DNA of 64,000 bases from Psilocybe cubensis. Its lineage: Eukaryota. Location of the stretch: positions 1,798,001-1,862,000 of the forward strand of contig CM039010.1 in the NCBI GenBank assembly GCA_017499595.2, given 5' to 3'. The position numbers and the translations under genes are program-made. Positions 3,001 to 60,103 of this stretch are shown here, in pieces (position 1 is the first letter of the stretch; every line of letters begins with the position of its first letter). The notes below the pieces were generated by a model, which was not told the origin of the DNA, searched no databases, and saw nothing but the letters and a program-made list of their open reading frames with translations.

Positions 3001-6000
3001 GCTTCAACAGCCTGCTCAGCCCATTATCATACAAACTTCTCCGAGTCATGGATCACATCCAGATGACCTTCGTCCTGTGACACCTATAGGTTCTGGGATG
3101 CCTGGTATGCCAATGACTGGTATTCCAATGACTGGTAGTATGCCCGGTATGCCAATGCCTGGTGTGCCCATGACAGGGATGCCTGGTGTACCCATGACGG
3201 GAATGCCTGGTGTACCCATGACGGGAATGCCTGGTGCACCCATGATGGGAATGCCAATGGCGGGTCAACCGACTGTGATCATGCAGCAACCCAGTCGTTC
3301 GTCCTCGAGATCTAGGAGTAGAAGCAGCAGTCGTCGTCGCCATCGCCGATCCCCAGTCCCAGCGGTAGCGCCTGTCGCTCCAGCACCAGCAGCAGCACCA
3401 GTGATTATCACAGGTTCACATCGCTCTCGTTCTAGATCCAGGTCTCGTAGTCGTCGACATACACCCCCTCAGGCCCCTGTTCAAATGCCTCCAGCAGGTG
3501 TTACCATTTTACCATCTCAGGCCCCACCTTTTGGTGTTGTTCCGCAAGGTATCGTTCCTGGTATGCCTGGTGGTGGTGGGGTCGTCATGATGCCTAGCAG
3601 AAGTCGAAGCAGCAGCCGTCATCGCAGTCATGGTCGACACACTCCTCCTCAAGTCGTAGTAGCACAACCACCAGCTGCTCCAACAATGTACCCCCCTCCT
3701 CCCACAGCGCCAACTCAGCAACCAATGCCTCAAGTCATAATGCCTGGCTCTATGGGAATGCCGATGGGTCCACCAGTCATTATGCCTACAAGAGGGTCTT
3801 CTCGGTCCCGCTCCCGCTCACCAACAAGGCAACAAGCACCAATAATTATTCCAGGTCAACCTTCCCAACGATATCGCTCTCGCTCTCGTTCTCGTTCTCG
3901 CCGCAGGCACAGTCGATCTCCTTCTCCTCGTCGCCGCCATCATAGTAGATCTCCTTCTCCCCGTCGCCATCGCTCGCGTTCTCCTCCTCGCACTCAGTAT
4001 GTTCCAACTGCCATTCCAGGGATGCCTACTGCTCCTCCCGTCATGCTGCCGCCAAGCCGATATCCAACGTACGCCCGTTCTCGCTCTCATTCTCGCTCTC
4101 CTCCCCGGGTAGCAGTGGTCGGAGATCCTCGCGCGCAGACACGATCACGAGTTCCTTCGCGTTCGCCTCCTCGTCGTTATAGTCCAACGCACCGTCATTA
4201 TCGCAGTCGCTCACCAGATGACTGGCACCGCCGCCGATACTCTCCTATCAGGCGTCCTGCCTACTCGCCACCTGATCGTCGTCGATCCCCGTCTCATGGT
4301 TATCGTCGGTATTCTAGGTCTCCCTCTTACTCAGAACGCGGTGGATATCATCGCACAAGGCCTCGATATTCTTCTGAGCATGATCGACGTCGCTCATTTT
4401 CCCCAGCCAGTCGCCGTGGGGGTCACCAAGCATCAAGACACCCAAGGTCTACTAGAAGCCTATCGCCTCCATCAATACGAAGCCCTTCGCCAGTGCATCG
4501 AACTCACAGAACAGGTTCTCGGGGTCGATCTCCCATCAGTCGAACTCGTTCCCGAACTCCAATTCCCATTCAACGCAGCTTTAGCGCTGGTTCTTCCATC
4601 CGTCGCCACCCAGTGGGTCCATCGGCGTCCCGTCGTGACCGTGATACATCAAGGCGTTCGCCATCTCGTAGCATTCGCCATGCTGTCACAGGACGTCGAA
4701 GGAGCCCTCCACGAACTCGTTCTCCCAGTGAATACACCCGTCGGAGCAGTACACCACGCATATATGTCACAAGTGTTCCACCAAGGCGTGGATCGCCCGA
4801 AAGCCAAGGGACTGTAAGGGTCACTGTTCCATCTCCCTCCAGGCCTGGTATTGGATCGTCAAGGCCTGTTCATAGGACGCCCACTATTTTCAGTATCGAT
4901 GATGCGCCTCGTCGCACACCAAGTCAACGACGACCATCTGGTGGTAAGTTTATTTAATATTTTTCACATTTATTTTAATTAAATTCTACGCATGCTTAGA
5001 ATCCTATGCTGGTTTGCAACCTTCTATCTACGGAGACCCGGTTCCCCCTCGTGTTCCAAGTGAAGACCCCAGAGTTCCGCCTGCAACCTCCCACGCAGAA
5101 CCGACTAATCTTGCAGATAGACCGGTCAGCCCTATCCATGGCGTATCCGAACATGATATCCCCTCGAGTGTCCGCCCTTCAACTGGGGCGCCAGGAACTT
5201 CTCATGTCGGTACTGGCCCTGCGCAAGTGCACAGGGTCAGTGACTCTATTCGAGCTCCGTCTCATATTACACAGACACCTTCCAGTATAGCACAACCTCT
5301 GCCTCCTCCTTCCCAGCATGTTCCTATCGGAGCAGGCGAGCGTCCCGCCATTGTTCAACCTCCTCCACGCCAAGCAACTGCTACGCCATTTAATTTCCAA
5401 GTCGCGGAAGAAAGTAGAGGTCAACTTCAAGAGCTTAATGACGCTGCCAATAGGCTGCATTTGACTGCCGCTGCTGCTCAGGAAGCTGAAGACCAGAGAG
5501 AGCTTGAATTCCTCAATCAAGAGGAGCAGCGCGAAAGGATTTTCAGAGAGAATGAGGAAAGAAGGGCACAGGAGGCGAGAGAAAGGGCGGCAGATATATT
5601 ACACGATTTGGAGTCTCGAGTAGCAGCTCTTCCTGCACCACCCAAGGCAGGAGACGAGCCTTTCGTAGGCGAACCTGGAGAACCTGGAGAACTTCCTGCT
5701 AGTGATCGAGAATCAATTCGTACTATCAGTGCCATTGCAACACAGGCTGCAAGCCAACATGCTGCTGATGTCTTGGAAACAGTACGACTAGAGCGAGAAG
5801 AGGCTGCCAAAGAACGTGAAGAGGCTGCACGAGAGCGCGAACTGTTACTCTCTGAACTTCGGGCGGAAAAAGACCGAGTTATCGAAGAGAAGGATGCACG
5901 TATTCGCGCCCTTGAAGAAGAGCTTAGGCAAATGCGAACCGACTTTGAAAGCGAAAAGCAGCAGCAGAGGATAACAGAGGAAGAGGAAGCCGGAGCTCGA

Positions 6001-7251
6001 GACCGCCAATTCGCGGAACGGGATGAATTCGTGAGAGCCCAATTGGGCGATATTACTAATCTGGTACAGGAGCAACGAGACCTGTTAGAATCTAAGAAGC
6101 AGATGGCTGAAGAGCGCCAAAGAGAAAAGGAGCAACGACGGGCAGAGAAAGAAGCGAACAACATCGAACTGCGTGATATGCTCCAGACAATCATCGTAGA
6201 GATGCAGAAAGACAAGGCTCGTTATGAGGATGATAAGGCCAAATCTGATGCAGGTATGTCTAGCGATCAAGTATATCCATTCAAACTTTCATTAACCCTG
6301 AATCTACTCAGCTATGGAACAAATGATTGCAGATCTGCAAAGGCAGAATGCTGAGCAACGGGAATTATTAACGTCTTTGTCTGAGAGTTAGTGCTTTTAC
6401 CGGGTTATCACTGAACATAATTAACTTGTTACCTTAGGCTGGCGAGCAGATTGCGAGAGGCATCATGAAGAGACTATTGATGCTGTTAGGTCGACAGCCA
6501 ACGAACAAATTCCTTTCAATGTCCAAGGCGTAGGTTTTTCGTTAACTCTTATCCTAGGCATCTAACATCTGACATTGGTATAGTATCTCGATGAATTTAG
6601 CAGAGCCCTAGCTACTGAAGTTCGCATGCTACTTGGAGAAGTTGGGAAAATCCGAGAGGAGAGACGGGCCCTTCAACAGTTAGCGCTTCCCTCCTTGCCC
6701 CATCGATGTGTGCTAATTTGCGATTTTAGCGAAATCGGTGACCTCCTGTGTATGAAATCTAAGTATGGCCCAGGGGGTGAATACGAACCTGATTGGTGAT
6801 TATTTTTTTTAATATTCTTTACCTTTTCCTTATCGACTTCATGGCATAGGAAACCACCTGGTCCTCCTCCTCCACCACCTGCCGATATACCACCACCGAT
6901 GCCTGAGATTCTTGAAATGCCACCACCGGTCAAACCTGCCTGGCGCACGGTGCACCCCCGGCCCAAGAAAAAGAAGAAAGCAGAGCCTGCCCCACCCGCT
7001 CCACCACCCGTACCTTCCATGTCGGCAGACCCAAGGAGGCAGCTGGTTACTGGATCTTGGGCAACGTGGCATCGTGAGTCTACGTCTTACGTTGAGAAAC
7101 AGTGATATTCAACTTTTTCTTTACAGCTGACCGTAATGCCCTTACTCCTCCGTCCATCGAACCTACACTGATGGTACCAGGACGAGAAAGCCCTGGATTA
7201 TTCGGACCACGTACCCCATCGAATGGGTCGATGTATGACCAACGCCGGTGA
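1..7251 (+). CDS. Large multi-exon Pro/Ser/Arg-rich protein with a C-terminal coiled coil; function unknown; 5' end lies outside the window
   Basis: Long ORFs 99-1202, 1985-4957 and 5014-6354 plus small exons are linked by GT..AG introns (e.g. 1167-1221, 1339-1391). The last exon, 7127-7251, reads ...PPSIEPTLMVPGRESPGLFGPRTPSNGSMYDQRR*. There is an E/R/K-rich coiled coil at about 5420-6250 and many RS/RSP repeats. Confidence 0.8.
3097..3260 (+). repeat. Coding tandem repeat with about 24-nt units encoding PG(V/M)PMTGM
   Basis: atgcctggtgtacccatgacggga is repeated, giving MPGVPMTGMPGVPMTGMPGVPMTGMPGAPM. Confidence 0.85.
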
Positions 7252-14760: not shown

Positions 14761-16310
14761 AAACCTTCTCCTAAGTTTCTTAAGGGAGGACGCTGCCTAG
14801 GATTTAAGTAGATTAGGATGGTGTGGATTGTGAAGGGTAACGGAAGCAAAATGGTAAGAAGAGGATAACCGGGTCGTCTGGGTACGATGGTAAATAAGCC
14901 TTCCGAAAATAGGATAGAACCATAAAATTAGATGGCGGGTGTATATGGAAAGCGTAAAGAAGATGCGTAGAATGCGTATGAGAAATCAATAAATGTGAAT
15001 CTTAGAGGGGTGGTCGGAAGTGAGTGGGGAACGTTTCAAGGGGAAATGAGGAGATGACTGGGAGTTGGAATATTGTTGAAGGGCTGAATCTTGGAGATGG
15101 TGAAAGTGTCCTTAAATTGACAATCTTTCTGATGCTTGGAATAAAGCTATACGTTGCGGGAGTATTGACTAAATCGAGAATGAAAGACTAAGTCTGTCTC
15201 GAATGAAATCACTCCAGATGAGTTGACGGAGGGAAAGGATGTCTTGGATCCACTCCTAACGGCGATGGTTGGAAGGAGTAGAAGGAGTAGGAGCGGTGAT
15301 GGATTGGATGGGGGAGAGGAAGTAGGGAGTACTGGATGTCTGGATAGAAGTTGGATGATTCAATGCTAGGAAGAAGAGGCATTGGAGGAAAAGAAGGACT
15401 GGTCTCGGATGAAATCCTCTCTCAATGGAAAGCAAGATGACTTCGGATGAATGGAAGTAAACTTGGTCTCAATGGAGGGTGGAACTGATGACTGGATTGG
15501 ACTTGGGTTTGGGCTTGGCTTGAACTTGAGCTTGGAATTGAAATGAATTGATGTGGATTGACTTGAAATTGACTTGACTTGGATGAAAATTGACTTGCTT
15601 TGAAGAAAGTGGGGACTGGGTGTAACTTTCCTGTCATTTTGTGTAATTCTACTACAGCTTTTATACTAAAAAGCTACGTGAACAAAATACCAATCTGAGC
15701 TACTGAAAACCGAGTCATATACTGTACAAAGTGTCAAGAATGAGGCTACGCAAGTGTAACAATAAGCAAGAACAATAAGACATGTCAATATCAACACGAC
15801 GACAGATAAGAAATGAATAGGATGAGTAAGAAAGAAGTGCATGACAAAGGTGAATGGTAATACAGATTAGATAAAAGAAGCAAGGATGAGTCAGAAAGCA
15901 TAGAAGATTGGCAAGACAAAGACAATAAAAGCGCAATAGACAATAGAAAAGATATAAATAAACACAAAAGGATGAGTAAGACAAACCAAAAATAAGATAA
16001 GATGAGTAATCTGCAGTCTGACGCTGAGTAAGACCATTGAGTTGATAAAAATAGAGTTGACAGTCCGGCTGTGCAAGGCAGTGTAGAAAGCTGTGCAGTT
16101 TGATGGTTGACTGATCCGTCGCATAGCCTTGATGATCCGACAGAATGACATGATCCGGAATAACGTGGCTCCCATGTGACGAGTATTGATAAGATAAGAT
16201 GAGTGGATGACTTATGGAAAGAATGACTGCTTGGGTTGAGGGCATCGTGTGTAGATCCAAAATGAAAATCTCATCTCCAATCAGGATTGGGGTATGATAA
16301 CGGCAAGACA
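14761..16310 (-). mobile_element. Probable 5' part of an LTR retroelement (LTR about 16310-15732, then a degenerate ORF from the ATG at 15637) that interrupts the Copia RT
   Basis: The minus strand begins TGTCTTG at 16310, exactly where the Copia RT frame is cut, and has a possible ..TGACA end at 15732. The sequence is pyrimidine-rich and LTR-like. No diagnostic protein motif was seen. Confidence 0.4.
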
Positions 16311-17544
16311 AAAAAGCCTTCTATCTTTCTCAAACTGCTCTTATTGACAAAATCATTGCATCCTTTGGACAGGCCGATTCTCATCCCGTCTCTGTCCCCA
16401 TGGACCCAGGACTGAAACTTAGACAACCAGATCGATCCAAAATGTCCTGGAAAGATAAAGATCGCCTCGCAAAATTCCCATATCGATCCCTAGTCGGATG
16501 CCTTATCTACCTAACCGTTAGAACCCGCCCAGATATCTTATATGCCGTACAGCAATTGTCACAGTTCCTTGACGCATTCTCATATGCTCACTGGAATGCT
16601 GCAATACGCGTAGTCCGTTCCCTCAAGGGAACACAAAATTTGAAACTTAAGCTCAGAGGCAACAAAATCGACCTTATTGGATTCACCGACTCAGATTGGG
16701 CCAATTGCCTTGACACTCGTTGAAGCGTTGGCGGATATGGATTCTCACTGGAATCTGGTCTTGTATCTTGGTCAGCACGCAAACAAGCAACAGTAGCAAC
16801 ATCCTCCACAGAGGCTGAGTATGGCGCTGCCTTTAAAGCATCTAAGGAAGCAATTTGGATGTGTACCCTGCTGACAGAGATAAAATTCTCTCCATCTAAA
16901 GCTACCCCACTACTGTGCGATAACAACTCCGCGATTATACTTTCCGATGATCCCTCACACCATAACCGATCCAAATACTTCAACATTAAACACCATTTTC
17001 TTCGAGAACGCGTACAGAGCGGAGAAATACGCACAGCATATATCAACACAAAAGACAACGCAGCAAATATTTTCACCAAGGCACTCCATCCACAGCAATT
17101 CCTTCGGCTTCACAACATGATAGGTCTCTCTTAAAATTACCCCTTTCTTTCTCTTCTTTCTTATTCTTCTTCAATTATTTTACACCACGATTCCGTTCAA
17201 GATGGAGTACACATCTTATGGTGAGGAGGAGTGTTGATTTCCACCTAACGTGACTCCCCTCAATGTTTGACGTCATGTAACAAACACACCCTTTTCCACT
17301 GTAGATACAAAGCACCTTTATTACATTACATCATATATACAGGGTACGGAAGCTACCCAACACCTCAGTCCAATTATTCGTGACTGAGGTAAGCCCTTTT
17401 TCTATTGACTTAGTTAACTATTTTACTTACTGTACCTAGTCGTGGCATTGCCACTTTACCTTAGGTACAGATCATCTAATAAAGTCCAATTATTTGTGAC
17501 TGAGTCGTGGCATTGCTACTTTATCTTAGGTCTGGATTTCTACA
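16311..17544 (+). mobile_element. Ty1/Copia 3' fragment (family A): RT end, RNase H, PPT and 3' LTR
   Basis: Motifs YRSLVGCLIYL..TRPDI, GFTDSDWA, SWSARKQATVATSSTEAEY, LCDNNSAI and RSKYFNIKHHFLRE. An internal TGA lies at 16721. The PPT gaggaggag is followed by TGTTGA at 17232. Confidence 0.92.
17232..17544 (+). repeat. Copia family A LTR (TGTTGA..TCTACA) with an internal hairpin, introns and a spliced duplicate
   Basis: Follows the PPT and has TG..CA ends. The internal duplication is described in the findings. Confidence 0.85.
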
Positions 17545-17752
17545 TATTATAAAGGAAGGTTAAAGAATAAAGGTGACATCATATAGAAAAAGGATGAGTA
17601 AGACTAGAAATCATATAGAATTTACTAGAAAGAAGTGGAGCAAGAAGGCTATGATAAAAGAAATAAACTATCTAATCAGATAATTGATAAGATAATGAAA
17701 GGATACAATAAATCTGTGAAGATAAAGAAGGAAAACTGGGGAAACCCTGACA
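17545..17752. repeat. Partial copy of the LTR at 32185-32626, truncated on the left by the Copia A insertion
   Basis: About 200 bp closely similar to 32419-32626 and ending in CCCTGACA. Confidence 0.85.
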
Positions 17753-22327: not shown

Positions 22328-23616
22328 TCAGAGATCTAATGAAGCAGCATTGGCGAGAGTAGACTTAGAGATATTGCAACGGATACAAAACTGGTCCATA
22401 GCAGAGGAAATATTATTGAGGTCAGAGGCGGAATAAGCTGAGGCTGTAGCAAGGGGAATAATTTCTGCAAAACGGCGCCAATATAAAAAAAAAGCTAATG
22501 AAGTCCAACCGCCAGTAGCGGCAACAATCTGATAGAGTAGTTAGCGAAAAGATATAGCGGATAAAAAAGGAAGAAACCTCGGGCGGAACACCAGCAAGCA
22601 AAAGAGCCACAGCTCCACCAATGCGAAAAGAGTGTCCAGAAATATAGGCTAGATCAGTTTTGTCCCAGATAGCCCTGATAAAGTCAAGAAAGACATGTTG
22701 GAATATGCTGGTCCAGCGTCCATCTGCTGAAAGATAGCCAAAGATGGAGACAGAGTTTGGAGGCGGATTATTATTAACTTGGATATGGTTAAGAAGGGCG
22801 GCAACGGGACAGAGGGCATCACAACGAGCAGTAAGAATGACATCGGCACCATCCTCTAATGTAGTCTTTGTCCAGGGTATGTGAAAACTGGCCGATCTCA
22901 GTGTGCCATCTGAAGTTCGATGAAAATGGATGCAATCCGGAGCGGCTGTAGCATTGGAGGAGAGAGAAAAAGAAGCTTGAGACTTCACTGTAGTCTCCCC
23001 AAGGTGACGACAGCCAAAGAATGTAGTAAGAGCACATGCCCAAACTGCAGCGTCAAAGGACTTAGTAATGTCTAGATGACGGTGTAGTTCAAAAAGGTGC
23101 TCAATTGAAACTGGGGCCCTGGAAGAACGCTTGAGGTGGGCTCCCGCCCTACTTGCCGATTTTTGAGCTACGTAGGTTGAGCCACTCGTGATCGCTATTC
23201 CATCGAGCGCCTTTGTTAATATGCCAAGCACGTACACTGGACAACCAAGATTTCATAGTGTTACCAGAAACTTGCCCCAAGCGCCATTAGACAAAGGCGG
23301 TGAGAGTGACAACAGAGGCAGGCATGCGAGAGACTTTATCTATTCCCATCTCATTGCAGAATTCATTGAAACGCTTGATTCCGGCACCGTAAGTTTTTTT
23401 GGTATTCTCGGAAAGTGCATTGGCGAGCAGGTGATAAGCGAGATCGATGACTTTGTTTGGATGGGAGATAGACAAGGCCGCTTTGAGATTAGTGTCGAAT
23501 GGGGTGGACCATGCAGACAGACAATCTGCTGCTGGGACATTAGGACAATAATGGCATGCAGATTTAGGGGGGCAGACAAAATGGAATGACGCTTGGGAAG
23601 CAGAGAATGGGGGCAA
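22328..23616 (-). pseudogene. Tyrosine recombinase of the YR-retroelement (frameshift near 23290; predicted intron 22529-22577)
   Basis: Motifs NTKKTYGAGIKRF, FFGCRHLGE, HIPWTKT, LCPVAAL and GHSFRIGGA. After splicing the sequence reads GVPPEIVAATGGWTSLAFFLYWR, which includes the catalytic W/Y region. Confidence 0.88.
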
Positions 23617-23958
23617 GGAAGAGGGAGCAGGGGTCGTGAATGATTCTGTATTCTAGGAAGAGAAATGTTTGAAGAATGACTGCAAGAATAAGAAGAAGAA
23701 AAAGAAATTGCATAAGGAACAGTAGACGACTTGAGAGACTTATCTATAAAAGGAGCTAAACGTGAATCTTTAGACGGCTGAAATGATTTGGAAGAAAGGA
23801 AATTTTTTGAATGCAAAGCGGAAAAATTGGAAGAAGAAGATTCAGAAGATGAGGAGGTTTTTTGAGGGGGGATGTGTGATGGCAACGTGTGGCGCAGAAG
23901 GGAAGGCAGGTCAACCCGCTCCCCACACATGAAGCATCTGCCTTCGACCCAAGGCTGA

Positions 23959-26000
23959 TCATGCAAACAAATCATTTGGTTCAAAAACATCGTAAAGTTT
24001 GCATGACAATACAAACTTTGTGGTGATTTTGGAACCCAGAGGACTGCTCACACCGCGCGATAGAGGGTCAGCTGGGTTTTGCTCCAAGGGTACGTAGATG
24101 AGTTCGGGTGTAACAAAGATGGATAAGAGGACTGTGCAGGAGCGACGTATGGAGTAGTTAAGGTGGTAGTTTGCACTGCGTCCTTTGCCAAGCGCGCCAA
24201 TCGTGCCTTGGTTATGAGAGTAAAAGGTAAGGCGGGAATTAGTAATGCCCATGGCTTCGATAAAATAAACCGCGAGCTCGATGGCGACTGTTTCAAGCCA
24301 GCAAATGTCCCTTTTCTTCTTTTTCCAAGTACTGGCAAGCTGAAAAGCAGCCCATCTGCCATCGATTACTATACCAATACCCCAGGAAGTGCTTGCATCT
24401 ACATAGATTCCCATATCTATAGGAGAACCTTGATGCATGAGCTTGCGTGTCACGTCTGGGACGGCGAGTGTGGAGAGCCACCACTTTAGATCTGTTATTA
24501 TAGAATGGGGTGGATAGCGGCAAGCAAAAGGATCATTGTTGAACAAAGAGGCAAAATTGGATAGCAACGGAAGATGAGAACGTCCCAGAGGGTGAACAAA
24601 AGAAATGTAGCATAAGGATCCATGCAATTTTTCGATGTCTTTGAGGCTGCATTGGGAATTGGTAAAATTAATCAAAAAGGTGTCGACTCGAGAAAGAAAT
24701 TTAAGGCGCTTGGCCTCGGGAAGAGAGACAGTCCAATTTGCTAGATTCCAGAGTAAGCCAATGAAGATTGTGGATGAAGAAAAGACTCGAGTGCCCTTAG
24801 TGGGGTGCCAGGGTACATGCAAGCTACTGATATGACCCATCATGGTGTCCCAATCATAGTCGTATCGGTATTTCCCATCAAAGAAAGGACTATTTGAGGA
24901 AGGGATGCGAAAGATACTAATGTCATCTTCGTACTTGGGAATAGGAAGGATGCCAGAGGCAATCCAAATGTCGACAAGCGCATTTGCGATCATGCCAGCA
25001 TTGCTGCTAGCAGACGCAGCGCCAAAAGGGTGAACATGATTGATGAAGAATTCATCCTCTGTCAGGCCTTGAACTACCAACCACGGTTTGTGGTCAGGGA
25101 GAACAGGGCAAGTACGATGAAAACCTTTGATGTTGGCAGTAACGGCCTGAGCACCATCGGGAAGTGAAGCAACCTGAGGTAGGGAATGAGAATGATTGAA
25201 ATAAATGAGAATGGGAGTGAAGAATGAGGCAAAAGCCTTTGAAGAAGGGGACGCGCACCCAAGCGGAGGAGTGTCATAGGATAGACGGGGGACGGCCGCC
25301 CCTGGGCGAATGAAGAGGGTGGACAAAAGTCCGGAACCAAAGTTCAAGGAGAATGACCCATTGTGATGTACACAACCACCAGCCAGAGTGGGCTCAAAAA
25401 AAGCTGGAAAGAAAGGAAGGCCGTATTGAAGACTCACCATGGAAGCCACACGATTGGCATAGTCAAAGCGAGTGGGAAAGTCTGACTTCCGAATGAACTG
25501 ATTGACCGATGGGGCGGACTTGGATGCTTTGGAGAGGTGGCGGCAAACTCGGATCTTGTTAGGTTCGCCTGGAGCTTGCGGCTGGACAACAACTAGAAGA
25601 GGTGATGCATGGATTTCACCTCTGCATATCTTCTTGCATTCTTCAAGAGTCCTGACATGCAGCCAGCCTTGACTTCATCTTGAATATATTCATTAACGGC
25701 ATCAGGATGGTCATAGCAGGAGGGATGGTTATTGAAAATTGTGGATTGAATGAGAGAGGGCATGGGCCCAAGAGGAAAGCCATGGCAAAGATTGTGAACA
25801 AGAAGCGGATAGGCAGAAGAAAGATCAAACTTTTGAAGTAATGTCTCAAAAGCGGAAGCCACATAGGGAGTAATAACACGAAAAAAAATATTAGGAAAGA
25901 CATGAAGCAAAGGGGAAAAAGATGGACGGTGAGCAATAAAAGCAGTAAAGTCAGGATAGAGAAGGCGAATGGGTCTGTCAAAAGTAAAAGGCTTAGGAGG
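23959..26000 (-). pseudogene. RT-RNase H of the YR-retroelement (frameshifted, with a predicted intron at 25174-25437)
   Basis: Motifs YIQDEVKAG, FHRTCPVLPDHKPWLVVQG, HPFGAASASSNAG, KYEDD (RT catalytic), YVDASTSWGIG, LETVAIEL and NPADPLSRG. Confidence 0.85.
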
Positions 26001-26109
26001 GTCTGGGACGGCAGACAAAAGAGAAGGCGTGGTGGGATTTGGAACCGCAGAAGGAACAGAGATGGCTGCGTGTTGAACCGTGGGAGTATGGGTAGGTGTT
26101 GCCAGCACC

Positions 26110-27435
26110 TCAGATATTGAAGGACAGACAAAGTTCTCTGTTGTCGTGGGAGAAAAGTCGGCCGTCCTGGAACTTGGCCCAGGCGTTCTTACCGTCTGCA
26201 AAATTTGCTGGAACTCGGTCTTTGGGATGGAAAGCAAGGGTGTGTCCGACCTTTGCACAGAGGAGGCAGATAGGAGGAGAGGAGGCACTCCTACTGCCCG
26301 ACGGAAAGGGATTGTTGCCTGGAATGAAACTAGAAGAACCAGTACGACAACTGTTAGGATTAGACTTTGAGAATCGTGAGACCGAATCTTCCAAAAGAGC
26401 CAGTTTGCTAGTAAGCGCCGCAATTTCAGCCTTGGCCGCTTGAGCCTGTTTATAATTAGAAACGGCATGAAGGAAAGCGCTCTCGTAGTCATTGACTGTG
26501 TAGCAATAGTTTTGCAAATGAATATTGCGGTGGAGTTGGATTTCGGCAGTTTGCCATGCAGGGAAAAGAGCAACCAAATCGGGTCGGGTACTCCAGAAAG
26601 AAAAATGAGTGACCCAAAGTTCGCCCCATTCCTTATCGGCGGCTTGCTGAAATTGAAATTTTATGTATTGTTCAGAGGCTTGAGAATAATTACCAAAATC
26701 AAGAGATTGATCCTTAGTCCCGAGTTTCTCTGAGAGCTTCTTGATATCTATGATATGGGTGGCCTTCGAATCGGCATTGAATGAGTTAGTTTTTTTAGTG
26801 GGAATATTAGCAAGGTTGTCAATGATGTAACAGAGGTTAGCATGAGTGAAATAGTTGAGAGGAAGAGGAACCAAGTTTTTGGTTGTGAACATAATTTCGG
26901 GAAGGTTAAAAGAAGCAGGAGCCATTGGATTGCACACAGTGAGCGAAGCGCCCTGCACACACCTTCGTTTAGCAATTCTTTCTTCGTTTTGCAGGACAGG
27001 ATCCCTGGAAGCCTCGTCCGCGGAACGCTTAAGGTCTTTGCTTTGTTTGTCAACCGAATCCAGCCATTGAATGATGTAGTCAGGCATGATATTAACGAGC
27101 CTCTGAGCAATAGATGGGATCATCAGTTTGGCCTCGTCTTCCAGGGACAGCAAAATGAGAGAAGAGGCGGGGGATCTGGGCACAGGATTGTTGTTCGGAT
27201 CTATGCGATGACACGCCGTTTTATCTAGACAGGCAGCATTTTCTTGTTCAATTTTTTTATTACGGGTAAGTTTCCCTTCAAAAGAGAGGCTGTAGAGAGC
27301 CTCCACAACTTGAGGAGAGGTGTGAAGACGACAAGCTGGAGGTTGAGGCGGTTGAGGAGGATTAGGAGGATTAGGATTGGGAGGATTAGGATTAGGAGCA
27401 TTAGGGGAAGATTCACGAGATCCCTCGTCAGCCAT
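26110..27435 (-). CDS. Gag-like ORF1 of the YR-retroelement
   Basis: 441-aa ORF with a Pro/Asn-rich N-terminus, a CLLCAKVGH knuckle and a C-terminal ELCLSFNI, lying upstream of and overlapping the RT ORF. Confidence 0.7.
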   Translation of the reverse strand: MADEGSRESSPNAPNPNPPNPNPPNPPQPPQPPACRLHTSPQVVEALYSLSFEGKLTRNKKIEQENAACLDKTACHRIDPNNNPVPRSPASSLILLSLEDEAKLMIPSIAQRLVNIMPDYIIQWLDSVDKQSKDLKRSADEASRDPVLQNEERIAKRRCVQGASLTVCNPMAPASFNLPEIMFTTKNLVPLPLNYFTHANLCYIIDNLANIPTKKTNSFNADSKATHIIDIKKLSEKLGTKDQSLDFGNYSQASEQYIKFQFQQAADKEWGELWVTHFSFWSTRPDLVALFPAWQTAEIQLHRNIHLQNYCYTVNDYESAFLHAVSNYKQAQAAKAEIAALTSKLALLEDSVSRFSKSNPNSCRTGSSSFIPGNNPFPSGSRSASSPPICLLCAKVGHTLAFHPKDRVPANFADGKNAWAKFQDGRLFSHDNRELCLSFNI

Positions 27436-27732
27436 TTGAGAGATAAAAAGCGAAAAAATTCAAGCAAGATTTTGGATGTCAAGAAACGGAGAAAACACGA
27501 AATCTTCTGTAAACAAGAGGGAGACAAGAGATGGAAGAAATTTGAGTAGACCTCAAGTTGGTATATTATGGGTCATAAATTAGAGAAGAATCTGAAGGTT
27601 AAGGAGCTTTCATGTCAAGAGAAGACAATCATTAACTGTCAAGAATTTGATAGAAGGTGAGTAAAGATCTTTGGGGAAATCCTTTTCTCTCTCTTATTTT
27701 ATCCGTAGATGAGTTCAACTGCGTCCTCATTG

Positions 27733-29479: not shown

Positions 29480-31302
29480 TATCAATGGATTTTGTGTATC
29501 AAGAAGAATGCAGCCGGGAAAATCAAAAAATATAAGGCACATCTAGTCATTAAAGGCTTCACTCAAATTGACAGCATAGACTATTATGAGACGTATGCAT
29601 CTATTGCTTGTTTTGCATCTTTTTAACTCTTTTTTGCTTTTGTTGTGCAGAATGACTGGATTGCAGACATTATCAACTTTGATTCAGCATATCTTAATAG
29701 TAAATTAGGGCCAAACCAGAAGGATTTTCTCAAACAGCCATCCAAGTTTGCTACTTGCAGCAGTTGTGACTGGGTTTGGCGGTTAAACAAAACATTATAC
29801 AGTTTGAAACAGGTTGCTAAAAACTAGTACAATACACTTTGTAAAGCTCTTGCTGATTTGGAGTTTGTAAAGATGGATACAGACTATGGAGTCTTTGTAA
29901 AGAAGATGAGCTCTAATATCATTATTCTTGCAGTACACATTGACAACTGCCTACTTGTTGGGAGCTCTAGAAAGCAAATTAACAAATTTAAAAAGCAAAT
30001 GAATCATATCTACAAGCTTACCAACTTAGGTGCCATGAATTAGCTCTTGGGGATCAAGATTACTCAAGATTTTGTCAACCATATTATTTCCCTATTCCAG
30101 GATGCGTACATTAATTTTCTTCTTGCACAATTCAATTTTAACAATCTGAAGTTGTCATCTATCCCTATGAATTACACAGCTACGCTCTCAAAATTGTAGT
30201 TCTCCACAAAAATTACAGACATCATTAAGATGCAGTAAATTCCATACTGTGAAGCGGTTGGATCCTTGATATATGCAGCAATGGAAACTTGTCCTGATAT
30301 TGCATTTGTAGTATCTACAGTGGCATAATTTTCCAAAAATCCAGATTGGGCTTATTGAGAGGCCATAAAGCAAATCTTTTGTTATTTATTAGGCACTTGC
30401 TTGTTACAATTAATGTATGGTAGCAAGAAACAAGGGGTGGAAGGGTTTATTGATACTAAGAGAGCATTTCAAGAGCACAAGTGTGCAATTTCCAAGTATA
30501 TTTTTATGATTGATGGAGGAACTGTTAGCTGGTCATTGAAGAAAGAAGAGTTACACTGTCAACTACCAAGGCAAAATATGTTACCCAAACTTACACTGAA
30601 AAGGAATCCATTTGGCTTTGTGAACTTATTACTCAGCTTTTTAGGCCACTTGACGGCTGAACTATTTTATTTTTTAATAGCAAATTGACTATTGCACTTG
30701 TGCAAGACAGATATTATCATGCATGCATAAAACACATTGATATTTGCTATCATTTTATCTACTATATCATCAAAAAGGGCATGATCAAGTTGATCTACTA
30801 ATCCACAAATAACATGACAGCTGACATTCTTACCAAGGTACTTTCTAGCATGAAGGCTAAACATTTTGCTACCACCTTCAGACTCAGCATAGTTTAAAAA
30901 GAGTATTGAATATTATTTCTAACTGTGCCTTTGTAATGCACGTCTTTTGTTTGATTAGATTTTATTTCCTGGTTTTTTTATTTCTCCGTGATGACCTCAA
31001 TATTGTCTAAACCATATGTAGATGGATGCATATATGGACAATATGTATATTGAGTAGGTTTGCATGGCTTGGGCATTTTCCCAGCCATTTTTTGTATCAC
31101 ATATACTATTCCATTTTGTATTAACGCCCCTTAGTCTATTCTACATTGACTGAGCTGGGTTGACTATTATTTTTACCAGTTCCCTTCACATATTGACTTT
31201 GTGTAGCCTTACATTTTGTTCAATAGGTACTATACATGAATAGAAGTCTATTCTACATTGACTGAGCCTTAAATTTTGTTCAATAGGGCTATATTATTCT
31301 AT
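29480..31302 (+). mobile_element. Ty1/Copia 3' fragment (family B), heavily decayed: RT, RNase H and LTR about 30904-31302
   Basis: Motifs KYKAHLVIKGFTQ..IDYYETYA, DFDSAYLNS-like NFDSAYLNS, LNKTLYSLKQ, LAVHIDN, DGGTVSWSLKK and KHIDICYHF. A decayed PPT is followed by TATTGA at 30904. Confidence 0.88.
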
Positions 31303-31349
31303 TTTTATATATTTTGATTATGATCATTTATATATAATAAATGCAAAAA

Positions 31350-32184
31350 TACTGTGCATTTTGATAAAAAATGAAATTCTCTCTGCAGCATCTCATCTAA
31401 TAGATAGATTATTTTGCAGCTTGAGAAAAATATTTTGAAGACACTTATAGATATCTATAGATGTCAAGAATTTAATTTATAACAAAATATTTGTAGAGAT
31501 ATGGACTAATTAATGACCTAGCATATTTTTTCTCATACCCCCTTTAATCAGTATATTTTTTTGCTACAGAGGGTTTATAAGGGTAAGTTTTGAGTTCTAA
31601 ATACTCTTAGCATTGGATCTACATGTTTTTTAATGGTCTGAAGGCCCATTCTATGCTATAATAAAATACACAAAATCTAGAAAGGATGAGTAATAGTACC
31701 ATCCAATCTTGGAATTTAATCAAGAATAAGAGCTTTAAAATTAGTAAAATAAATGCCTAACTAATCCTAGCTGGGTCTAAATTTATCTGATTAGGAAGGC
31801 ATTCATACAAGGGGTAGAAAGAGGGGTAGTATGCACATTCTAGTTCAATGGCCCATATGAGATAATCAGAAAATTAAGTCCTGTTACTTATCAATTACGA
31901 CTATCTATATCCTATGGTAATCATCCAATATTAAATATTGCTGATTTGGTTTGCTATAAGGAGTTGCCACTAGAATTTGGGGAAAAAGAGAAAATAAAAC
32001 CCATAAAAGAGTCTTTTGACAAATTACCCAAAGTCCAAATGGAAAAAACAGTCAATGAAAGACTTTTCAAAGCACAAGATAAGAATAGAAAGGTACGGAA
32101 GTTTTGGGCAAGGTAGAAAGGTTTTCCAAAGGAAGAAGATGAATGGCTAACAAAGAAAGAACTAGGAAACACACCAAAAATCCT
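31350..32184 (+). mobile_element. Ty3/Gypsy (chromovirus-like) integrase C-terminus and chromodomain remnant
   Basis: FNGPYEIIRKLSPVTYQLRL..HPILNI (GPY/F module) and FWAR*KGFPKEEDEWLTKKELGNTPKIL (chromodomain-like). Confidence 0.75.
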
Positions 32185-32626
32185 TGTCAGGGCAACATTA
32201 TAATCAGTATAACAAGGGCACCAACAAAGATCAAGCAAGAGAGAGAGCAGAGGAAGAGTAAGAGAGCAGAATGAGAATAAGAGGATAAGAGAGACTCAAT
32301 GATTCTAAAAAATTACACTAATGATAGTGGATATTCTAAGAGATTGAAGCTGAGACTACAGCTACCTACAAGTCCAGTATTTATACTCTAGAGCTATTCT
32401 AGAATATTCCCTATATTACATTATAAAGGAAGGTTAAAGAATAAAAGTGATATCATATGGAAAAAGGATGAGTAAGACTAGGAATCATATAGAATTTACT
32501 AGAAGAAAGTGGAGCAAGAAGACTATAATGAAAGAAATAAACTATCTAATCAGATAATTGATAAGATAATGAAAGAATAAGATAAATCTGTGAAGATAAA
32601 GAGGAAAAACTAGAAAAACCCTGACA
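32185..32626. repeat. LTR of 442 bp with 8-bp inverted termini TGTCAGGG..CCCTGACA
   Basis: Terminal inverted octamer and a partial copy at 17545-17752. No matching TSD (atcct versus tagac). Confidence 0.75.
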
Positions 32627-40869: not shown

Positions 40870-41870
40870 CATGCCTTACACCGGAACCATATTGTTTATA
40901 ACCCCATCTGGCGTGTCCATTATCACATCATGATTCTTGTCCACAGTGTCATCCTCAATATTTGCAACTGAAACTGTATTGTTTATAGCCCCATCTGGTA
41001 TGTCCATTATCACATCACAATTGTTGTCCACGGTGTTGTCCTCTTTATTCTGATTGTCTGGTACATCATCATTAAATCCACTCTTCTCACCCTTCTCCTG
41101 GTCTTGACCCCTTTCAGTTCCATTTGTATCCTTCTGGTCGGTCTCCAGTTCACTCAGTTCACTCTCCTTACCCTTTTCCTGGTCTTGACTCCTTCCAGTT
41201 TCATCTGCACCCTCCTGGTTGGTCTCCATTATATCAATCAGCTTTCCTATTTTGTTTGGTTATGCAGCTTTAGTCTTGGTGCTACCCTAAGACACTAACT
41301 GCTGCTCAGGGTGAGGAGATATTCCTGCAAGTTGAACTGTGTCATTTATCTATTGTATCTACTGTCATATCAATATCTTCCCCCATGTTCTTCTTGTCTT
41401 TCTTCAGCCTAGGTGTGACTTTGTCTGTATTGTTCTTCTCTCCAATGGTCTTGTACATCTCATTCTCTTCACCTGCAACATCTTCTTAGACTTCATCTTG
41501 CATGTTGTCACTCCTTGCACCAGCCAGGTCCACGTCCATATCCTCACTACCACTCATGTTTTTAGTTGTCATAGTTTCTTCCTGTCTAGGTGGCATAGTT
41601 ATCAGCAGTCTTGGTTGAGAAGACTGTACTAGCAACTTGAATGGAAATGTTAGGTCTTTATTTATTGGCGAGTCTCCATTCCGCACCAATGACACACCTC
41701 ATTTCACAGCCAGGATATTCAATGCAGCAGGAAAAGGTCAATATCTAGGATGCATTCATACATATCCACCTGATTCCACAAAGACCCTTGGTTCTACTAT
41801 CCCAACCAGGATTGTTTTTCAAAATGGGCTTAGTACCTGTTTGCAGGTTTACATTGATGAGTCTTGCAGA
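40870..41870 (-). pseudogene. Acidic low-complexity ORF fragments, possibly the N-terminal part of the JmjC-like gene
   Basis: Repeated D/E/Q-rich units (ETNQEGADETGRSQDQEKG; DVIMDxPDGxINNxV, twice). Same strand as and upstream of the JmjC exons. Confidence 0.35.
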
Positions 41871-42189
41871 TCTAAAGTATTTTTTTCTATTTTTCTTTCA
41901 ATTCATAAACTTACAATCTTCATTTAGACAAGAAAAATTAAACAATATCATTTTCTACTTTATATATATAAATTGAAATGTTGATTCAAATTTTGTAATA
42001 TAATGTGTATCATTTTTTGGCATCCTGAACATCCTTGATAGTGTGATCCTTGAGTACCTAAGTCAATATATCTGTTTCTTGGCATCACCTTCCTGTGACA
42101 TGTCTTGATATATATAGAAAACATACATATGTTCATTGATATTAAACTGCAGTAATACGTGGTTTGATAGGAAAGGCGCACCATAGTAA

Positions 42190-42515
42190 TGCGCAGTTTG
42201 ATAGGGAGGGCGCAGTAGAGTGATGCACAGATTGATAGTGAAGGCCTACTGGAGTGATGCACAGATTGATAGGGATGGCCTACTGGAGTGATGTATAGTT
42301 TGATAGGGAAGGCGTACTGGAGTAATGCGCCAGGAATGGCCTATTCCAGTGTAGCGGAGTGCAGCACTACAGTTGGCCGCACTTTATACCACTCCAGTGT
42401 GATGTAACGTTCCATTGGACTCATGTATGACATAATAGGGGAGGCACTCCAGTGTGCTAAACATTGTACCACTCCAGTATGACGTGATATCTGTGATAGT
42501 AATGCATTACTGTGA
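42190..42515. repeat. Third CACTCCAGTG/ACTGGAGTG cluster with about 32-bp tandem units; putative element terminus
   Basis: tgatagggaaggc.tactggagtgatgcacaga is repeated about 4 times, and cactccagtg occurs at about 42390 and 42445. Confidence 0.7.
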
Positions 42516-45787: not shown

Positions 45788-47391
45788 CAGTGGGCAAAAA
45801 AACCGTTCGAGTGTTGGTCACATATAAAAAGATTAATTTATAACTTTGAAATTAAAAATGTTAAAAATATGAAATTATTCACAGATATACTATATGGTGT
45901 TAGCTAAAGGATGACATACTGATCATGTGATTTGTCCAAGAATTGACCAAACAGCAGCATACACAATTTGCTAAGTCATTCAAACAGTTTTTTTGCTAGT
46001 AATTTAAATGCTATAAACTATGTATTATCACATGACTTTGTTGATATACCAAACAACTATCAATAAAATCATGTGACTACATGTTGAATAGGTATATAAT
46101 AGCTACAACCAACCTCTTTATCCCCCAATCAAGCATGAAACCCCTCTCTAAAGCAACCATTGCTACTATTGTCTCTCTTCTTACTTCTGGTCACTCCTAT
46201 GCCTCTATCAAGGCCCAGACTGGAGCTAGTGCTGGTTCTATCACCAAGATTTGCCAAGACTACTGTCCTGGAGCAGTGGTTTCCCATGGAGGATGCCCAA
46301 AGAAGCTGACTGGTGCCAATATCACCTATACCAAGCGTGGAATTTGAACTAGACAAATCAAGAATGCTGTGCAAGCTGCCAAGTCTCTGGCTACTATTAA
46401 TGGCCAGAATATCAGTCCTCAAACAGTTAGGAATGCACTCAAATCAACTGGCATGGTCTCAGTGGCAAAACAAAAGAAGCCTTTGTTATCAAAAAAGCAT
46501 AGGAGGGCTAGATTGGAGTTTGCAGAAAGGCACTTGGAGTGGACTGTGGATGACTGGGCAAGGGTCTGGTGGTCAGATGAGACCAAAATTAACAGATTGG
46601 GTTCAGATGGCAGAGATCAGGTGTGGATAGACAAGGAAAACAGACAGAATCCCAGGAGGATCAAGCAAACTGTGAAGTTTGGAGGAGGAAACTTAATGAT
46701 ATGGGGTTGTATGAGATGGGAAGGAATTGGATTTGCCACTAGAATTGATGGGAAGATAGATGCTCAGTTATACACTGAGATCCTAGGTGATGAGCTCCTA
46801 AAATCCTTGGAGTGGTATGGTCAACAGGTAGAAGATATCCACTTTCAGCAAGACAATGACCCCAAGCACACCTCAAAATTGGCCAAGAAATGGTTTGAAG
46901 AGCAGAATTTTAGGGTCCTCATATGGCCTGCACAATCTCCAGATCTCAACCCCATTGAACATCTATGGGAATACCTCAAAAGAAGACTTAATGAATATGA
47001 AGTCCCACCAAAGGGTATCCATGAACTTTGGGAGAGGGTTGAGAAGGAATGGAATGGAATACCCAAGGAAGTGGTGCAGAATTTGATTGCTAGCATGCCT
47101 AGAAGGTGTGCAGCAGTGATTAAGGCCAAGGGTGGACATACAAAGTACTAGTAGATATGATTTATTGATACTCAAGTGTTTAGCAAAAAAACTGTTTGAA
47201 TGACTTAGCAAACTGTATATACTCCTGTTTGGTCAATTCTTGGAAAAATCACATGATCAGTGTGCCATCCTTTAGCTAATACCCTCTAGTATACCTGTGA
47301 ATAATCTCATATTTTTAACATTTTTAATTTCAAAGTTATAAATTAATCTTTTCATACATGACCAACACTTGAACGGTTTTTTTGCCCACTG
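45788..47391 (+). mobile_element. Tc1-family DNA transposon (DD34E) with 211-bp TIRs and TA flanks
   Basis: Ends read TA|CAGTGGGCAAAAAAACC..GGTTTTTTTGCCCACTG|TA. TIRs span 45788-45998 and 47181-47391. Confidence 0.95.
46135..47151 (+). pseudogene. Tc1 transposase with one in-frame TGA (46345-46347, probably from CGA)
   Basis: Motifs WWSDETK, FQQDNDPKH and WPAQSPDLNPIEHLW, with 34 residues between the second D and the E. The ORFs on either side of the stop are in frame. Confidence 0.92.
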
Positions 47392-50235: not shown

Positions 50236-52516
50236 TATACTGTATATAAACAAATCCTTCTCTTTAGTCAGACTTTGTAATTGGTCAAGTATTAGTCAAA
50301 GTTAGATTAAAGTTGACTTGAGGTAGACTTAAGTTCTTTAAAGCCTAAATCCAATCAAATTCAGATTTAGAATTTGGAATAAAGTTGAAAGCAAAATAGC
50401 AAACAAACTAATTAAATTGAGTATAAGGTAGCTAAGTAATCTAAGTTGATAATCAACTTGGGAATTCTAGTCTGAAACAAGAGGGGTTTATATACTACTA
50501 TTGGAATAAAAATAAACCACCAAAAATAAGTCATAAAAAATAAAAATAAAGAGTAAGAATAATGAATAAAAGAAATAAGGTTTAAGAGAAGGTAAGACAG
50601 ATGTCTGAAATAAGTTTACATACAAAGTTAGACTAAAGTTGGAATCCAGAAGCTGGGAGATAGAAGTCAGATGTGGAATTCAACTGACAATGTTGTATAA
50701 TAAAGTCAAGAGAGTATAGTATATCACAAGTCCTATTTATTTAATTTTGCTACTAAAAGTTATGTATTATCTTAGATTATTGGTTTTATTTTTAAATAAT
50801 TTTGCTTAAATTATTTCTATTCTTTTATCCATATAATATTTAATATAATATACTATTTATATTTGCTTATATTAATGCTTAAATTTATATAAACATATAA
50901 AAAACATGCTTATGTATAATACTTAATGAATAAATTGGTTAAAACCAAGTGGATAATCAATACAAGCAATTTAGAAATGTGCTTTCCATTTTGGCAAAAT
51001 CTTCTATATTTAGTAATCAAATTCAATTTCTACTTGTGGTATACTAGTCTCAATCTAGCCTCTTGGAATGATTGTGGCTATGCCAACCTATTTGGAACTA
51101 AAGTCCTCAAGAGAAATCATAACCAAAAGATCTAATACAATTTAACCATAATCCAAGGAATTAGAATTTGAAACTCTGCTAATGGCTCAAATTAGTAATA
51201 CAGAAGTATTTCTACCTTGCCTTCTCAATAACATTTTTCATTTATATTATTTTTTTGTAGTTTGTCTATAGAATAAGAAATATATAATTACTATTCTATA
51301 GTCTAATAAGAAAATAAAATATAACAAGCTATATAGAATATTATTTTAAGGAATAAAACTAGCAATAAAATAGACTAAATATCTGATAAATAATATGGTG
51401 CAGTGGAATTACTTTGATAAAAATAGATTTTTGCTCATCTTTAAAAATAAAAACCTACTTTAAATTTTATTTATCATATTTACTACCAAATAATTACTAA
51501 AACTAAAATTAAGCAGAATAGCAAGTTTAAGACTGAGCAGATTTGCAATATTCTTACTAAAAGGTCTATCAAAGTCTTGGATATGCGCCCTTTTCAATGA
51601 CAACTCAAAGCTGCAGGTATAATTTTATTTGGCAAGGATGTCATTTTTAATGTTGGTACTAGATATGAGAAATCTTTATATTTCTTGCTTTTTTTATTGG
51701 TAAGTAAAAAAGCCATTGCTCTTATAGTGACACTACTTTTTGCTCTGATAAAAGATTAGGTATATTTTCAAGTCAACAAGATATAGTATATATTTATATG
51801 TGAGTTATATTTACAGATTAATAATTTTAAATTGCCAGTAGTAGCTGTATGCAGTAAACAATGTCAAGGATTGGATATGAACAGATATATGAGGTAGATA
51901 CTATAATTAGTACTTTGAAAAATAAAAATGAAAAATTAGGGTAAATTAAACTATATGCTTTGTCTTTCTGCTCAAGTTGGGCTTTAAACAAAGCTTTTTG
52001 CTATTTTTAAAGTATTCAATCCAAATTTAAAATCATAATTACAATTTCTTTACTTATTATTGTGCAATTAAATATATAATATTTTGCTCAAAAAGCGCAC
52101 CTTAAATAGTACTCTTTAGGAGTTGTTGGTATGCACTCTTTTGACTTGTTAAAACTGCTCTTTATATCTCCCTCACTTTGCTATCTTATCAGATTAGATT
52201 ACTTTCTTCTTATCTTCATTTGCTCTCCAGACCATTCTAGACACATGATATTTATCAGTCCATAGACTGGTCTGGACCGGACCAGAGTAGACCTAGATAG
52301 ACCAGAGTACTTGAGTCTGCACAGTATATAGTTACTCTAGTTTACATCCTGAAGTCCCCAGTTACTCACTTCGGACTTCAGGTTAGTTTGTTAGCACTTT
52401 GCTCAATTCACCCAGTCACTCACTCAGACGCTTTGTGCTTGCTTATCCCTGCGCCCTACGTTGTATAATTAGGTCGCCGAGTAGCTCACACTGCTCCGAG
52501 CTCGCCTGCTTCAACA

Positions 52517-52528
52517 GGTTATGGGCCC
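52517..52528 (+). promoter_or_regulatory. Primer-binding site of the internal (half) tRNA-iMet type, as in Drosophila copia
   Basis: GGTTATGGGCCC lies directly after the CA end of the LTR. Confidence 0.8.
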
Positions 52529-59725: not shown

Positions 59726-60103
59726 TGTTAAAACTGCTCTCCATGTCTCCCTCACTTTGTTATCTTATCAGATTAGATTACTTTCTTCTTATCTTCATTT
59801 GCTCTCCAGACCATTCTAGACACATGATATTTATCAGTCCATAGACTGGTCTGGACCGGACCAGAGTAGACCTAGGTAGACCAGAATACTTGAGTCTACA
59901 TAGTATATAGTCACTCTAGTTTACATCCTGAAGTCCCCAGTTACTCACTTTGGACTTCAGGTTAGTTTGTTAGCACTTTGCTCAATTCACTCAGTTACTC
60001 ACTTGGGACTTCAGACGCTTCGTGCTCGCTTATCCCTGCGCCCTACGTTCTATAACTAGGTCGCCGAGTAGCTCACACTGCCCCGAGCTCGCCTGCTTCA
60101 ACA
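59726..60103 (+). mobile_element. Solo LTR of Copia family C (378 bp) with 5-bp TSD ATATT
   Basis: Reads ATATT|TGTTAAAAC..TTCAACA|ATATT and matches 52147-52516. Confidence 0.95.

Follow-up and report, generated by a model that had tools for sequence, protein, structure and literature searches.

A decayed Copia long terminal repeat of Psilocybe cubensis probably preserves a leader module with a short intron and its spliced copy

How can the terminal repeat of a retrotransposon come to hold the same short segment twice, once interrupted and once seamless? This question is raised by positions 31095–31302 of a 64-kb stretch of Psilocybe cubensis DNA (assembly GCA_017499595.2, contig CM039010.1, positions 1,798,001 to 1,862,000; hereafter the window, whose numbering is used throughout). 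They cover the end of a long terminal repeat (LTR) of a dead Copia element, here called the 31-kb LTR. An earlier note, made from the letters alone, had described there a TATA-like motif, a hairpin and a 52-nt intron with a decayed donor, followed after a short spacer by a precisely spliced duplicate of both flanking exons; it had also claimed that a second, unrelated Copia family shares this layout. Our reading is that 31095–31302 represents the R-U5 (repeat and unique 5′) end of the 3′ LTR and a decayed copy of a conserved leader module. We place the probability of this reading, which blends the module with the mechanism proposed for it, at about 0.6. That the locus is the fossil of a conserved module made up of a leader intron and a reverse-transcribed spliced copy is highly probable when taken by itself; the strand-transfer mechanism is put forward far more tentatively.

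The module has a fixed order (Table 1). A TATA box is followed, 33 nt on, by a 22-nt exon 1 (exon A) at the predicted cap site; then come an intron of about 50 nt, an exon 2 (exon B) of 20–25 nt, an 18-nt spacer and an intron-less copy of exons 1 and 2 (A′B′) which extends to, or nearly to, the end of the LTR. In the predicted fold the 5′ arm of a hairpin, H1, would lie upstream of the cap site and its 3′ arm over the 5′ splice site. In the 31-kb LTR the TATA-like motif, both stem arms, the 11-nt loop, the 52-nt segment ending in AG and the first exon B were all found where the earlier note had located them. Comparison of 30900–31450 with the whole window by blastn returned an exact 23-nt repeat (31133–31155 and 31245–31267; E = 5e-6) and no other copy of the LTR, and the first unit minus exactly 52 nt matches the second with a single mismatch. 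The joined duplicate lacking exactly 52 nt and reaching 31286 therefore stands, as does the GTAC with which the spacer begins, whereas the boundary of the repeat moves the start of the duplicate from 31247 to 31245 and shortens the spacer from 20 to 18 nt. The region 31120–31165 folds into a hairpin of −13.1 kcal/mol (z = −3.15; 2 of 200 shuffles as good), which is a modest score, and the duplicate, being devoid of the 5′ arm, does not form it (z = −1.03). Judged from its letters, the window copy appears to be a fossil in which the G of the donor has been replaced by C, the stem has lost five pairs and a second hairpin (see below) is absent.

Most of the evidence comes from relatives in which these signals are intact. 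An exact search with the 21-nt core of exon A identified nine metagenome loci (L001 to L009), all of them undecayed Copia LTRs; since L003 and L004 have a common flank and L007 and L009 share both flanks, they represent seven independent insertions. Nine sequences bear the intron: the 31-kb LTR, a sister LTR at 17 kb in the window, L002 to L007, and L009. The segment begins with GT in eight of these nine and ends with AG in eight. In all seven intron-bearing metagenome loci it starts with GTGAGC, and in six of them it ends with AG (GG in L002). Its length is 48–52 nt in the seven sequences that were parsed, and 48–51 nt in the five metagenome loci among them. A branch-like pentamer, picked out by eye and unscored, lies 10–20 nt upstream of the acceptor in the relatives; the consensus behind this reading is the one we take to be usual. 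In double-form relatives, those with an unspliced and a spliced unit in tandem, the segment is absent from the downstream copy with single-nucleotide precision. The GT donor and the exact GT..AG junction that had been expected are thus present in all seven loci and in the 17-kb LTR, save for the acceptor of L002, and neither observation named beforehand as fatal to the intron (a donor position without GT, or a missing segment out of register with GT..AG) applies to the relatives.

Three forms of the LTR coexist in a single subfamily with 92–98% LTR identity, namely the intron unit alone (L007 = L009), the intron-less unit alone (L001 and L008) and the tandem of both (L003 = L004). The double form is also present in L002, L005, L006 and the 17-kb and 31-kb LTRs. 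An exact intron-less copy accordingly exists both as A′B′ in seven double-form sequences and in the intron-less LTRs L001 and L008. The first letter of the duplicate is one and the same A in all seven double-form sequences, located 33 nt beyond the T that opens the TATA box. We take this distance to be the classical spacing between a TATA box and a transcription start, and the surrounding letters resemble a start-site consensus.

The layout is kept while the sequence changes, as had been claimed. The 11-nt loop, the spacer of 17–18 nt beginning with GTAC, and the stem core recur, and exon A is always 22 nt long; the 17-kb LTR, which is very likely the ‘family A’ of the earlier note, also has an 11-nt loop, but its loop sequence and its exon B differ from those of the 31-kb LTR. 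To call the families unrelated, however, was too strong, because all of them are Copia with 26–37% amino-acid identity over reverse transcriptase (RT) and RNase H. The module is homologous across families, not convergent, and the comparison suggests that it may serve a selected function.

In the relatives the stem of H1 comprises 9–12 bp, and its 3′ arm covers the donor; in the metagenome loci this arm includes the first five letters of the intron. The perfect stem that had been anticipated, of 12 bp, is found in four of the seven intron-bearing metagenome loci (L005, L006, L007 and L009), whereas L003 and L004 have 11 of the 12 pairs and L002 has 10 plus a G-U pair. At this position four LTRs, drawn from three families, form hairpins with z values of −3.9 to −4.5 that none of 200 shuffles equalled, and in one of them the stem is entirely different in sequence. 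When the L006 LTR was folded together with 18 nt of U3 (the unique 3′ region), the start-site hairpin was extended (z = −5.2); folding from the predicted start only gave z = −1.1. In the L family and the 17-kb LTR a second hairpin pairs the last 7–8 letters of the intron with the junction of exon B and spacer. The GTAC of the spacer is the 3′ arm of this second conserved hairpin, which may be the reason for its constancy, with no donor being needed. A third Copia family of the window has a simpler version of the module, where a 54-nt GT..AG segment ends with 22 nt (59993–60014) that repeat the exon, and the last base of a 10-bp hairpin, unrelated in sequence, is the first letter of the intron. 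A covariance model of the hairpin region detected only the known instances in the window and the nine loci and did not detect this third family. Rfam at the gathering threshold yielded no match in the window, and no transfer RNA (tRNA) genes, which were sought for complementarity to primer sites, were found in the window or in five scanned loci.

The two exon copies within an LTR are almost identical, in contrast to exons of different lineages. Exon A and A′ differ at none to two of 22 positions. For B and B′ the mismatches are 0/25, 0/25, 0/24, 0/24, 1/20 and 2/25, the second copy of L002 being disrupted. By contrast, any two of L004, L005 and L006, whose LTRs are 77–78% identical, show about four differences in exon B (by eye from the alignment), and this exon is unalignable between the 31-kb LTR, the 17-kb LTR and the L family. 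The spacers are homologous, with a divergence equal to that of the remaining LTR. Old as the tandem form is, its exon copies are kept alike, and recurrent rewriting or conversion is therefore needed. To judge from these alignments, the concerted evolution points to an ongoing process of reverse transcription.

Table 1. Positions in the window of the module, its host element and the sister LTRs
Feature	Position	Strand	Basis or detail
TATA-like motif	31100..31106	+	33 nt 5′ of 31133; aligns with the invariant ATATA columns of relatives
Hairpin H1 remnant, 7 bp including one G-U, 11-nt loop 31137-31147	31129..31154	+	Fold; arms 31129-31136 and 31148-31154
Exon A, 22 nt, begins at predicted cap site	31133..31154	+	Exact repeat of 31245-31266; 21-nt core identical in 9 metagenome loci
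Decayed putative intron, 52 nt, begins CTGGGT (donor CT), acceptor AG	31155..31206	+	Homologous segments of relatives 48-51 nt, GT..AG
Exon B, first copy, 20 nt	31207..31226	+	1/20 mismatch with 31267-31286
Spacer S, 18 nt, first letters GTAC, A-rich end	31227..31244	+	17-kb LTR, L002, L004 and L006 alike: 17-18 nt, same first four letters
Exon A′, intron-less copy, without 5′ arm of H1	31245..31266	+	Exact repeat
Exon B′, directly joined to A′	31267..31286	+	LTR end is 31285
Copia pol fragment (RT to RNase H), degenerate, 5′-truncated, many stops	29489..30897	+	tblastn and sequence; stop codon 30895-30897
Purine-rich tract resembling a polypurine tract, immediately 5′ of LTR	30896..30903	+	Sequence; relatives have a purine tract at the same place
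3′ LTR, 382 nt, decayed by C-to-T and G-to-A changes	30904..31285	+	Other genomic copy; blastn to L004 LTR
17-kb Copia LTR, same module, intact signals	17232..17544	+	Sequence, parsing, folds
17-kb LTR, upstream parts	TATA 17334-17339; A 17367-17388; intron 17389-17439; B 17440-17464	+	Putative intron 51 nt, GTAAGC..AG; B 25 nt
17-kb LTR, downstream parts	S 17465-17482; A′ 17483-17504; B′ 17505-17529; terminal 15 nt 17530-17544	+	S 18 nt, starts GTAC
Third Copia family, 3′ LTR, simpler version	59726..60103	+	5′ LTR 52147-52516; LTRs 96% alike
Third family, parts	Hairpin 59927-59961; exon 59939-59960; GT..AG segment 59961-60014	+	Exon 22 nt

The intron-less copy runs from the predicted cap site to the end of the LTR, which is what minus-strand strong-stop DNA copied from a spliced RNA would contain, so that an origin by reverse transcription is the natural reading. 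Because the 5′ arm of H1 precedes the predicted start, only the 3′ copy in the RNA can hide the donor and exon A. The leader copy, which is without this arm, would be spliced, while in the 3′ copy the whole hairpin would hide donor and exon 1. The spliced strong-stop cDNA would then land on the contiguous processed copy in the 3′ R, the only contiguous match, and reverse transcription would continue via spacer, exon 2, intron and exon 1 into U3. In each cycle the intron would be kept and the processed copy rewritten from the upstream exons, which would explain the concerted evolution. Such rewriting would require that the leader also lose the spacer and the old copy, either by a second splice or by template switching. 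Occasional mis-landing on exon A would lead to the intron-less form, and switching between the B copies to the single unspliced form. By means of such a module an intron may be handed down despite reverse transcription, and the route outlined here seems plausible from the arrangement of its parts, although we would give it somewhat less than an even chance. It is with similar reserve, at odds of roughly one in three, that we suggest a group of Copia elements with a self-perpetuating leader intron, in which the hairpin would form in the 3′ RNA copy only, the leader alone would be spliced, and the pre-spliced R-U5 would serve as landing site.

When the window copy was considered alone, it was initially read as an ordinary tandem duplication within the LTR, followed by a 52-nt deletion through slippage or template switching at microhomologies, with no splicing at all. 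Its CT..AG ends, the AG|C present at both junctions and the four equivalent registers of the deletion agree with this explanation, which was dropped once the GT..AG bounds of the relatives were found. It is now very improbable, as it accounts neither for the extended donor hexamers and the branch-like motif before the acceptor in the relatives, nor for a junction that stays exactly the same although the first letters of exon B differ in L004, L005 and L006, nor for a duplicate whose start coincides in every lineage with the predicted cap site. A more serious competitor is one ancient mis-transfer of spliced strong-stop cDNA. It would have created the tandem as a functionless, neutral relic whose copies stay alike via template switching or gene conversion. 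Direct repeats in retroelement RNA do recombine, and the single-unit forms L001, L008 and L007 = L009 look viable, L001 with an open pol piece of 609 aa, so that the double form is not obligatory. However, five of the eight independent LTRs have kept the double form, in lineages whose U3 and exon B are unalignable, and the lengths of spacer, loop and exon A are constant; moreover, simple switching between repeats yields deletions rather than homogenisation. We regard such a relic as unlikely, at perhaps one chance in four. Still less probable is that the processed copy is the real R-U5 and the upstream unit a regulatory piece embedded in U3, be it a decoy exon-intron pair that aids 3′-end formation or expression, or the source of a short spliced non-coding RNA. 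The spacer does end in an A-rich hexamer in the 17-kb LTR, L002, L004 and L006, which we take to resemble a polyadenylation signal. Spliced transcripts contained within LTRs are also reported from maize (bioRxiv 10.64898/2026.05.08.723830). Yet the TATA box lies 33 nt before the first unit and not the second, the identity of exon copies within an LTR is left unexplained, and in the third Copia family a hexamer of this kind is missing from the stretch that separates the exon copies.

Several points weigh against the reading that we prefer, that is, a decayed leader module with an intron and its reverse-transcribed spliced copy. In the window copy the 52-nt deletion fits four equal registers (starts 31153–31156) owing to the 3-nt junction microhomology AG|C, and with ends of AG..GT, GC..TA, CT..AG and TG..GC none of the four shows canonical bounds (GT..AG, GC..AG or AT..AC), whichever strand is read. 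No RNA run was listed among those containing the locus; start of transcription, splicing and strand-transfer logic are all deduced from DNA. If a singly spliced RNA were copied, a form with a spliced first unit followed by spacer and second unit would be expected, and this was not seen. The candidate second intron, of about 60–65 nt, is bounded by GT..AG but has a poor donor: in every copy the GTAC of the spacer is without a G at intron position 5, which makes a second splice doubtful. No covariation supports the hairpins in the alignable set, where 1 of 21 predicted pairs is double-changed and the pairs are near-invariant. A fuzzy search disclosed no other copy of the spacer, and hence no source for it, in the window or the nine loci. 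Exon A differs from A′ at one or two positions in L003 and L004. The sample is small, with eight independent LTRs of the module and one simpler family. Finally, the pol fragment adjoining the 31-kb LTR is only 26–33% identical to that of L001, yet exon A is shared letter for letter with the L family; by contrast, the pol fragment at 17 kb (16286–17131) is 62% identical to that of L001 but its LTR has a different loop. This discordance between pol and LTR could reflect decay or an exchange of LTR modules.

Parts of the arrangement have counterparts in other systems. Retroviral R hairpins (TAR and poly(A)) act differently in their 5′ and 3′ copies and join in the first strand transfer, and the donor of human T-cell leukaemia virus type 1 (HTLV-1) lies in R. 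In those viruses, however, the LTR is not known to contain the whole intron, nor is a processed duplicate known, and the Copia hairpin is set apart by a 5′ arm that precedes the predicted start. In engineered retroviral vectors of the split-intron or double-copy type, intron parts sit in the 3′ LTR, and reverse transcription rebuilds the intron in the provirus; the Copia module, unlike these, is natural and conserved across several lineages. Ordinary tandem repeats that arise in LTRs by RT template switching are likewise direct repeats, and repeat-mediated deletion can turn the double form into the single-unit ones, but in the module splice-site signals bound the segment that is missing, and the predicted cap site marks where the copy begins.

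A close analogy is provided by the Penelope element of Drosophila virilis. According to the accessible portion of the report (PMC2377424), a 75-bp intron 46 bp past the start site is spliced in most transcripts and yet kept through retrotransposition, and deletion of this leader intron abolishes expression of a reporter. As in the Copia module, a short intron lies inside the repeat or promoter region near the start, and the same portion of the report describes neither a built-in spliced copy nor a start-site hairpin (PMC2377424). Penelope also differs in having a telomerase-like RT and a GIY-YIG endonuclease, and in lacking tRNA-primed strand transfers and a true LTR. The likeness is one of analogy only: the 31-kb module does not belong to a Penelope-like element (PLE), as the adjoining pol is of Copia type (by tblastn, and with RVT_2 in the sister families of the window). 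In maize, a 2026 preprint describes introns with a mean length of 1303 bp inside LTRs, seen in RNA of non-coding LTR transcripts, and presents them as the first evidence for LTR introns (bioRxiv 10.64898/2026.05.08.723830). The Copia module shares the location inside the LTR and is distinct in its 48–52-nt intron, known from DNA alone, and in having a DNA copy of the spliced product in the same LTR. A survey of fungal Copia elements (PMC5445492) contains neither ‘intron’ nor ‘spliced’, and no earlier account of an LTR that holds both an intron and the spliced copy of it was found in the open literature, subscription journals and supplementary files being outside this search.

Retrotransposition is expected to erase introns, and the Penelope report treats their retention as a peculiarity that sets PLEs apart from LTR and non-LTR elements (PMC2377424). 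Against this background, a short LTR intron, the exact product of its splicing and a likely cap site are recorded in the DNA of no fewer than three Copia lineages. Should the proposed strand-transfer mechanism be correct, it would add a new way for an LTR element to be spliced and still inherit its intron, so that gains from splicing are kept, and it would provide a natural case of splicing controlled by a hairpin arm that lies before or after the start site. Annotators should be aware that a direct repeat within an LTR can be a processed copy of the leader.

The element that ends in the 31-kb LTR is strongly decayed. Copia pol queries from the window and L001 match 29489–30855 by tblastn with 26–33% identity (E = 3e-44 to 4e-47) across several stops, and the single open piece of the fragment, of 109 aa, yielded no Pfam family. 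The LTR itself has 33% G+C, and its part 31101–31266 is 70% identical to the L004 LTR over 171 nt (blastn, E = 6e-8). Its termini are TA.. and ..TA, each one transition away from the TG..CA of relatives. There is no matching 5′ LTR, target-site duplication or second LTR copy of the element within the window, the element being cut off near 29489. Repeat-induced point mutation of the classical Neurospora type was considered as a cause of the decay and rejected: it is marked by a high TpA/ApT and a low (CpA+TpG)/(ApC+GpT), and the indices of the 31-kb element were 0.82–0.87 and 1.34–1.62, respectively. At 144 places in one sequencing run (X1) a G or C of other copies is matched by A or T in the window, against 38 places in the reverse direction, an excess that is strong in spite of these index values.

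Further genomic copies were sought among the contigs of three runs and the raw reads of one run placed on 30500–31700 with at least 80% likeness. At that threshold the family is tiny, consisting of the locus itself (depth 47.5, no differences) and one further LTR contig of 377 nt (record 3 of run X1; record 10 of run X3 is alike), whose depth of 79.1 is about twice the single-copy value of 47.5. This contig extends some 48 nt to the left of 30958 and ends at the match to 31285. Compared with 30958–31285 it has 51 substitutions and five gaps of 1 nt only, so that neither the 52 nt nor the duplicate has been lost from it. Its double depth fits two LTRs of one other element. Among the joints listed for four runs, none lies inside the 31-kb LTR. 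A high-copy repeat begins at 31286, straight after the LTR, with a depth of up to 2379 against the single-copy 47.5.

Additional likenesses were noted within the LTRs. A post hoc finding is that 31159–31225, a stretch spanning the 52-nt segment and exon B, is similar to the LTR's own first 65 nt (30905–30966); one of 1000 shuffles attained its score of 39, as did one of 648 real pieces of the window. By eye only, the spacer resembles the terminal 15 nt of the LTR as well as the end of the intron and the start of exon B. In L005 (2225–2545) an insertion of about 180 nt with terminal inverted repeats, similar to a miniature inverted-repeat transposable element, sits within the spacer of an otherwise intact double-form LTR.

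The window as a whole has 42% G+C, no N and is rich in transposons. Its Copia and Tc1 content, putative introns of 48–52 nt and contig totals of 40–50 million letters per run fit a fungal host. The third-family element contains Pfam matches to Retrotran_gag_2 and RVT_2. A stretch resembling a primer site begins at 52517, directly behind its 5′ LTR, and identical letters come after the LTR of L008. At 58300–58493 there is a nested LTR fragment without the first exon and the hairpin, and a near-identical Copia pol lies on the minus strand at 60937–62382. A 207-nt repeat occurs at 17546–17752 and 32420–32626 (92% alike), the first copy starting two bases past the end of the 17-kb LTR and the second lying about 1.1 kb past that of the 31-kb LTR. 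The open reading frame 46348–47148 encodes the Tc1/mariner transposase domains DDE_3 and HTH_Tnp_Tc3_2, whereas the long open frames within 1877–6354 (plus strand) and 22422–27459 (minus strand), of up to 1026 aa, matched no Pfam family at E values of 0.001–0.01. Tandem repeats at 42146–42328 and 40880–41228 have units of 34 nt, where an 81-nt reference recurs in four overlapping copies spaced 34 nt apart, and of roughly 81–87 nt.

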